Positions 43,136-43,339 of a stretch of DNA of 43,339 nt are shown here, one piece after another (positions within the stretch are counted from its first letter, which is position 1; each line of letters starts with the position of its first letter). Both the position numbers and the translations under genes were made by a program. This DNA comes from Escherichia coli (GTDB lineage Bacteria; Pseudomonadota; Gammaproteobacteria; Enterobacterales; Enterobacteriaceae), in assembly GCF_003334315.1 (NCBI RefSeq), contig NZ_QOWR01000042.1. One strand, given 5' to 3'. The notes under the pieces are model-generated. The model ran no database searches. It was not told where the DNA came from and saw nothing but the letters and a program-made list of their open reading frames with translations.

Positions 43136-43339
43136 GGTGATGATGCCAACTTACTGATTTAGTGTATGATGGTGTTTTTGAGGTGCTCCAGTGGCTTCTG
43201 TTTCTATCAGCTGTCCCTCCTGTTCAGCTACTGACGGGGTGGTGCGTAACGGCAAAAGCACCGCCGGACATCAGCGCTATCTCTGCTCTCACTGCCGTAA
43301 AACATGGCAACTGCAGTTCACTTACACCGCTTCTCAACC
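43136..43339 (+). mobile_element. IS1 insertion sequence, left end (truncated by window edge)
   Basis: GGTGATGATGCCAACTTACTGATTTAGTGTATGATGGTGTTTTTGAGGTGCTCCAGTGGCTTCTGTTTCTATCAGCTG... matches the IS1 terminal inverted repeat and insA leader, with one mismatch in the IR as I recall it. Confidence 0.85.
43191..43339 (+). CDS. insA: IS1 InsA (transposition repressor), N-terminal fragment
   Basis: GTG start, [49 protein letters not shown] (zinc-finger CxxC...CxxC); runs off the window end. Confidence 0.7.

Follow-up and report, generated by a model that had tools for sequence, protein, structure and literature searches.

Insertions of IS1 on the 5' side of Escherichia coli genes are known from two settings with which the present locus can be compared. 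In the gal and lac operons of classical genetics, IS1 sits between the promoter and the coding sequence, and in such positions the element is strongly polar. At bgl and flhDC, insertions of IS1 or IS5 lie upstream of the promoter, relieve silencing by H-NS and are activating; a broken H-NS filament can raise expression, as at bgl. The IS1 copy considered here is found next to pdeL (yahA) in a 43,339-nucleotide stretch of E. coli DNA (contig NZ_QOWR01000042.1 of assembly GCF_003334315.1), which is referred to as the window. Like the gal and lac insertions it is located between a promoter and the coding sequence; pdeL differs from these operons in being monocistronic, in having a 328-nt leader and in retaining minor internal start sites downstream of the element. 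With bgl and flhDC the locus shares an AT-rich, H-NS-bound control region that has received IS1 repeatedly, in either orientation, within a few hundred base pairs. The element at pdeL is not upstream of the promoter as in those cases, however, but lies at -254 relative to the ATG, so that the main start site (-328) precedes it.

PdeL is both a transcription factor and a phosphodiesterase, and it converts graded c-di-GMP levels into an on/off switch (Reinders et al., 10.1101/2021.10.01.462762). The spacer between betT and pdeL is bound by H-NS (10.1101/2021.10.01.462762; PMC3946193), and in a genomic SELEX study the betT-yahA spacer is given as a site of the RpoD holoenzyme that overlaps H-NS, its best promoter being TTGATC-16-TATAAT (PMC3946193). 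The label 'P1' used by Reinders et al. (10.1101/2021.10.01.462762) hints that more than one promoter was recognised by these authors. A mobile-element hotspot near pdeL, statistically supported in two isolate collections, is described by Durrant et al. (bioRxiv 10.1101/527788), and the same population-level excess of insertions adjoining pdeL is seen here. That study appears to give neither an anatomy relative to the promoter nor recurrence at a single site (10.1101/527788), both of which are given below.

The final part of the window is 100% identical to the initial 204 bp of full-length 768-bp IS1 copies of close relatives (e.g. positions 3315-4082 of locus L003), and its boundary coincides exactly with the terminal GGTGATG of IS1 (Table 1). 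The terminal stretch, GGTGATGATGCCAACTTACTGAT, was compared with the canonical IS1 terminal inverted repeat of approximately 23 bp, GGTGATGCTGCCAACTTACTGAT; the match occurs once in the 43-kb window, with 0 expected from shuffled sequences. The sole mismatch is an A for C at IS1 position 9 (A9). Since 363 records share A9, those of ETEC H10407 and ATCC 8739 among them, it is, judging from these entries, a natural minority isoform and not a sequence error. The counterpart of the insA promoter in the canonical element, CTGCCA-16-TATGAT, has been given for insAB (PMC3946193). The insA reading frame begins approximately 55 nt inside the left end, and positions 43191-43337 (+ strand) encode the initial 49 residues of InsA, for which a score of 42.8 bits was obtained against the NCBIfam IS1/IS1595 zinc-binding domain NF050000 (curated cutoff 28). 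Relative to IS1A/IS1B-type E. coli isoforms of the IS1 family, the element has the same terminal repeat, insA start and first 49 codons, and within the visible 204 bp it differs by the minority base A9 of the left repeat only. A full IS1 element additionally comprises insB', produced via a -1 frameshift, and a right inverted repeat, measures 768 bp in total and is bounded by an 8-9-bp direct target duplication. The window covers 204 bp of the element, the right end and the target duplication lying beyond its edge; presumably the copy is complete and flanked by such a duplication.

The ATG of pdeL is at 42881 on the minus strand and the first base of IS1 at 43136, which gives a distance of 255 nt (43136 - 42881). 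An earlier note, made from the letters of the window alone, had placed the left end of an IS1 at 43136, 255 bp from the pdeL start and with insA directed away from pdeL, and had supposed that K-12 MG1655 carries no IS1 at this position. The left end is borne out by the inverted repeat, the identity over 204 bp and the InsA start, and both the distance and the orientation agree with the coordinates and strands; the sequence stays IS1 and insA through all 204 bp visible. Comparison with the MG1655 reference likewise shows an empty, uninterrupted site (...ACTCATTTTTGGTAATAAAG...). An Rfam scan of the pdeL/IS1 region found nothing.

Table 1. Features of the window, IS1 copies at the same target in other strains, and IS1 events mapped around pdeL.
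Feature or strain	Position in window	Position relative to pdeL ATG	Strand or orientation	Remarks
pdeL (yahA) coding sequence, intact	41793..42881		-	362-aa product identical to PdeL of MG1655, BE311 and AHM9C68I
pdeL 5' leader still joined to gene, 254 nt	42882..43135		-	Cappable-seq positions, promoter scan
IS1 target CATTTTTG	43128..43135	-254..-247	.	same 8/9 bp duplicated in BE311, LR-33, AR_0081 and QL57EC
IS1, first 204 bp	43136..43339		+	element cut by window end; 100% identical to 5' ends of full-length IS1 in AHM9C68I
IS1 left inverted repeat (IRL), A at position 9	43136..43158		+	22/23 match
insA promoter within IRL, ATGCCA-16-TATGAT	43143..43170		+	promoter scan; points into IS1, away from pdeL
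insA 5' part, GTG start, first 49 codons	43191..43339		+	translation; NCBIfam domain match
BE311, F41, K99S, EC24.26			as window	canonical IS1; duplication CATTTTTG (8 bp)
LR-33			opposite	canonical right end GGTAATG; duplication CATTTTTG (8 bp)
AR_0081			opposite	canonical right end GGTAATG; duplication CATTTTTGG (9 bp)
QL57EC			opposite	right-end isoform GGTAGTG; duplication CATTTTTGG (9 bp)
H7 (NZ_CP010171.1; L013 1202-1969)		+271		IS1 within pdeL coding sequence, 9-bp duplication
EC590		-95		IS1 event
Window and seven exact-target strains		-254/-255		five events
J6		-322		IS1 with 205-bp deletion
23CRST021		-336		IS1 event
HCP6S3_I2		-380		IS1 event
O6:H16 ETEC		-428		IS1 with large deletion
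ST131 strains such as H105		~-447		IS1 event, target duplication
a7		-457		IS1 event
2017.01.04CC		-510		IS1 with deletion
AHM9C68I group		-528		IS1 in yahV
HCP30S3_I2		-529		IS1 in yahV with deletion
EC1		~-602		IS1 with large deletion
200164		-735		IS1 event
MLI104K2		-787		IS1 event

The positions of the control elements of pdeL were rebuilt from the oligonucleotides of the preprint supplement, the genomic SELEX table and Cappable-seq coordinates. In all three of these independent sources the main promoter is distant from the ATG. The promoter scan locates the main pdeL promoter, TTGATC-16-TATAAT, at -361..-334. Three sense-strand Cappable-seq starts in U00096.2 were mapped onto the sequence, namely 331267 (-328, score 8.9), 331353 (-242, score 4.8) and 331503 (-92, score 3.6), the first of which is 6 nt past TATAAT. 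When the oligonucleotides of Reinders et al. (10.1101/2021.10.01.462762) are mapped, the Cra box occupies -499..-484 and the PdeL box that depends on Cra -483..-471; the distal PdeL box falls within -709..-643. The fragment to which RNA polymerase is recruited by Cra and PdeL, delimited by oligonucleotides 4695 and 4283, extends as far as -322. The IS1 target is located 74-81 nt downstream of the main start, within the 5' leader, and the start-site and IS1 positions together put the element in the transcribed region, 5' of the coding sequence, as in polar insertions. As the main promoter, the Cra box and both PdeL boxes all lie beyond IS1, the element parts pdeL from all of them. The leader that remains joined to the gene holds the minor start sites, at window positions 43123 (-242) and 42973 (-92), as well as a weak promoter-like site found by the scan at 43037..43010; the -10-like AAAAAT of the start at -242 is contained in the target itself. 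The assignment of IS1 to the regulatory region of pdeL in the earlier note consequently needs to be divided: the DNA in question does control pdeL, but it is leader and not upstream regulatory DNA.

A second expectation of that note, that the insertion was probably strain-specific, did not survive comparison with other genomes. Of 5,426 complete E. coli genomes, 7 have IS1 at the target CATTTTTG(G). The copies are of several isoforms, lie in either orientation and are spread over several pdeL backgrounds, and three different PdeL alleles occur among the strains concerned. These counts were obtained with 52-bp junction queries, the halves of which are unable to seed alone; 80-bp queries over-count by joining separate pieces. 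The BE311 group resembles the window in target, leader position and orientation and differs in its IS1 isoform (canonical C9). Because of this difference, and because BE311 and the window are separated by approximately 150 SNPs in 43 kb, the insertions of the BE311 group and of the window are regarded as separate events. LR-33, AR_0081 and QL57EC share the target and the leader position with the window, whereas their copies are inverted and have a canonical or a GGTAGTG right end. All complete IS1 copies at the target, representing four cases or lineages, are simple insertions with 8- or 9-bp duplications and with yahV/betT intact beyond. Judged by isoform, orientation and background, there are at least four independent insertions besides that of the window, and at least five including it, into one 8/9-bp site; the spacer is a recurrent target. 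The 5,426 complete E. coli genomes do not include the exact allele of the window (A9 isoform in this orientation), and its exact junction gave 0 matches in two large collections, genome_contigs and metagenome_contigs. Hotspots resembling the ends of the element are described in the older IS1 literature, and in the empty target, CATTTTTG|GTAATAAAG, the initial six bases of the IS1 right end, GGTAAT, span the cut.

The recurrence also bears on whether the IS1 sequence truly neighbours pdeL or was attached to it by a mis-join of a draft contig. Both ends of the window are in repeats, the start within a tandem array of approximately 100 bp and the end in IS1, as is typical of short-read assemblies, and the window is probably a whole contig of this kind. 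Nonetheless, the junction coincides to the base with the IS1 terminus and with the target that IS1 has used in seven other genomes. Since a random mis-join would not match both an IS1 terminus and a known target, an artefact is hardly credible.

Phylogroup-A-like genomes of poultry, pig and human origin are colinear with the window, whose closest relatives provide a second conceivable route to the observed junction. Only approximately 5 real SNPs in 43 kb separate the window from AHM9C68I, AHM9C61I, 23CRST042, JX21CE33 and 30EVA2. In this group an IS1 of the A9 isoform lies in yahV, at a distance from pdeL that is greater by exactly 274 bp; it has the orientation of the window copy and the 9-bp duplication GCAATGCCA. 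An ancestor with this yahV::IS1 (-528) could have undergone an IS1-mediated adjacent deletion, in which the left end transposed intramolecularly into CATTTTTG with loss of 274 bp; the main promoter and its start at -328 would have gone with this interval, as would the Cra box, the Cra-dependent PdeL box and part of yahV. The element would then be without a target duplication, its right end would be followed by GCAATGCCAATAAAAAC, and the pdeL promoter would be lost outright. Such deletions adjacent to IS1 are common in the spacer (approximately 5 of 17 mapped events: J6, HCP30S3_I2, 2017.01.04CC, O6:H16 ETEC and EC1). Against this route, the A9 isoform is widespread, and AHM9C68I has it in at least one further IS1; A9 was rejected as an indicator that the window IS1 descends from the yahV copy, since both the 363 records and this second AHM9C68I element carry it. 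Furthermore, HCP30S3_I2 is equally near to the window (6 SNPs) and has a different IS1 isoform in yahV, 1 bp away from the position of the AHM9C68I copy. Because that copy is another isoform, independent IS1 events within the clone are demonstrated. The IS3, IS1 and IS26 insertions of AHM9C68I are all missing from the window, and every complete IS1 copy at the exact target is, as described above, a simple insertion. Placement by SNPs gave no resolution between insertion and deletion (5 SNPs for AHM9C68I, 6 for HCP30S3_I2, both counts leaving out differences within REP arrays). On balance, simple insertion at the pdeL target is probable, and origin by deletion is unlikely. With insertion and deletion alike, pdeL loses the connection to its main promoter.

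Several further observations concern the same clone. In AHM9C68I (locus L004), IS3 is located in yahL (32577-33834), IS1 beside yahK (34376-35143) and IS26 near yahJ (36502-37321); in the window the corresponding sites are empty, at 30576, 31108-31117 and 32458-32465. Strains of the AHM9C68I type give at least approximately 40 IS1 matches each, a high IS1 load. Tandem arrays of REP type with periods of 93-200 bp are found in the window at 1-142, 17190-17592, 20295-20542, 25187-25477 and 34951-35496. They vary in copy number and sequence among close relatives and are the source of most apparent SNPs; the other differences between the window and its relatives look like common alleles.

The explanation that best accounts for these data, with a probability of roughly 0.55, is a simple IS1 insertion at the hotspot that uncouples pdeL from its main promoter, i.e. 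a regulatory knock-down. A full-length IS1 would have entered the hotspot CATTTTTG(G) by ordinary transposition, within the spacer, AT-rich and bound by H-NS, that separates betT/yahV from pdeL, and its right end would be followed by CATTTTTGGTAATAAAG, the target duplication. The pdeL coding sequence would thereby be separated by 768 bp of IS1 from the main promoter, from the Cra box with its adjacent PdeL box and from the distal PdeL box, and transcripts of the main promoter would have to traverse 768 nt of IS1 that is antisense and untranslated. Under this model the switch-like induction of pdeL, which depends on Cra and PdeL and responds to c-di-GMP, would be lost together with the H-NS-silenced main promoter, and any transcription left would be low and come from the minor starts at -242 and -92. 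The earlier note had allowed for either disruption or rewiring of pdeL expression; because the element is within the transcribed leader, downstream of the main promoter, disconnection from normal control is the most likely effect, rather than fine rewiring. IS1 is expected to be polar here, and pdeL expression would be lowered.

The sequence at the junction was also inspected for promoters formed by the element itself. On the pdeL-sense strand, no outward promoter-like site from IS1 passes the promoter scan at the junction. The outward -35 of IS1, TTGGCA, is 9 nt from AAAAAT, and at a distance of 16-18 nt it faces AGTATC, GTATCT or TATCTG. Given that there is no usable -10 at 16-18 nt from TTGGCA, a hybrid promoter would not be expected. 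The outward -35 of IS1 yields a hybrid promoter only with a correctly spaced -10, and in the osmB example transcription was reduced (PMC8764528).

These findings can be set against the converse possibility, that IS1 activates pdeL or renders it constitutive, either by interrupting the H-NS silencing complex or through promoter activity of the IS1 end. In that event neither H-NS nor c-di-GMP feedback would restrain the minor promoters at -242 and -92, in the manner of the bgl and flhDC activation by IS1 or IS5. The strong repression of pdeL by H-NS, with several H-NS sites in the spacer (10.1101/2021.10.01.462762), is in line with such an outcome, as is the fact that the -10-like AAAAAT and the start at -242 are preserved adjoining the IS1 end. 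In addition, PdeL overexpression protects from phage N4, and repeated IS1 events in major lineages could reflect selection. However, the activating insertions at bgl and flhDC are located upstream of the promoter, whereas the element at pdeL is downstream of the main start and takes away two activator sites, and no site based on TTGGCA passes the promoter scan. Loss of pdeL expression is moreover tolerated, as seen in H7, with IS1 inside pdeL, and in J6, with the whole promoter deleted, and deletion of pdeL has no marked laboratory phenotype. Because the element lies downstream of the promoter, pdeL is disrupted in H7 and a pdeL deletion has little phenotype, activation is considered distinctly improbable.

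The insertion in the window is one of many in the surrounding region. The left inverted repeat of IS1 is found in the window orientation within approximately 540 bp in 201 of 5,426 genomes, and 8 additional genomes carry IS1 in the opposite orientation. From the 18 loci read, at least 17 independent IS1 events could be mapped between +271 and -787 of the pdeL ATG; counted in addition to those at the target CATTTTTG(G), the events in this interval number at least 16. The betT-pdeL spacer has a G+C content of 27-38%, compared with approximately 55% in betT. The window IS1 is a real, ordinary copy, and its site is a hotspot that is hit repeatedly and has been reported before.

Some of the other insertions have features of their own. 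More than 20 ST131 genomes share the IS1 at approximately -447, for instance H105 (NZ_CP021454.1; L005 2733-3500); from its position between the Cra/PdeL boxes and the core promoter, this copy would part the activators from the promoter in a clone of clinical importance. In O6:H16 ETEC (NZ_CP022912.1; L006 78-845 and 2715-3482), two inverted IS1 copies bracket pdeL, one of which truncates yahB, with prpR adjacent, while the other, at -428, is followed by rclR in place of yahV/betT. Both flanks of pdeL are thus deleted in this lineage, and the arrangement looks like a composite transposon. A second hotspot, of nearly single-base precision, is located in yahV (L003 3315 and L007 43373; -528/-529), where the copies of two closely related strains, of different isoforms, are 1 bp apart; a 9-bp duplication accompanies one of them and a 128-bp adjacent deletion the other. 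The target duplications at -336..-328, -254..-247 and -95..-87 (the latter two at window positions 43128-43135 and ~42968-42976) overlap the -10 or the start base of the starts at -328, -242 and -92, respectively; by a rough count approximately 1 such overlap is expected against the 3 seen, which is not significant. IS1 junctions with flanks like ...TCATTTTTG are found at or in dgcZ and pdeC (NZ_CP019213.3, NZ_CP100987.1 and NZ_CP092500.1), and an IS1 with A9 lies beside dgcP. A preference for AT-rich targets may explain these junctions at other c-di-GMP genes.

The repeated arrival of IS1 in the promoter and leader of pdeL, the ST131 subclade and O6:H16 ETEC included, might also be viewed as a set of parallel, selected switches that lock the bistable c-di-GMP circuit of PdeL in one state, beyond mere target preference, or, in a related form, as a consequence of IS1 being drawn to the melted -10/start-site DNA of promoters. 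Both ideas are speculative and their truth is very doubtful. PdeL affects motility, biofilm formation and sensitivity to phage N4, and a strain in which pdeL is severed from its Cra/PdeL-controlled promoter should be without the on/off split of the population. Outright loss of pdeL also occurs in nature, as in H7. The locus further illustrates that, for genes with long leaders, a position upstream of the ATG differs from a position upstream of the promoter. With IS1 in the control region of approximately 4% of complete genomes, regulation of pdeL as in K-12 is not to be assumed in natural isolates of E. coli.
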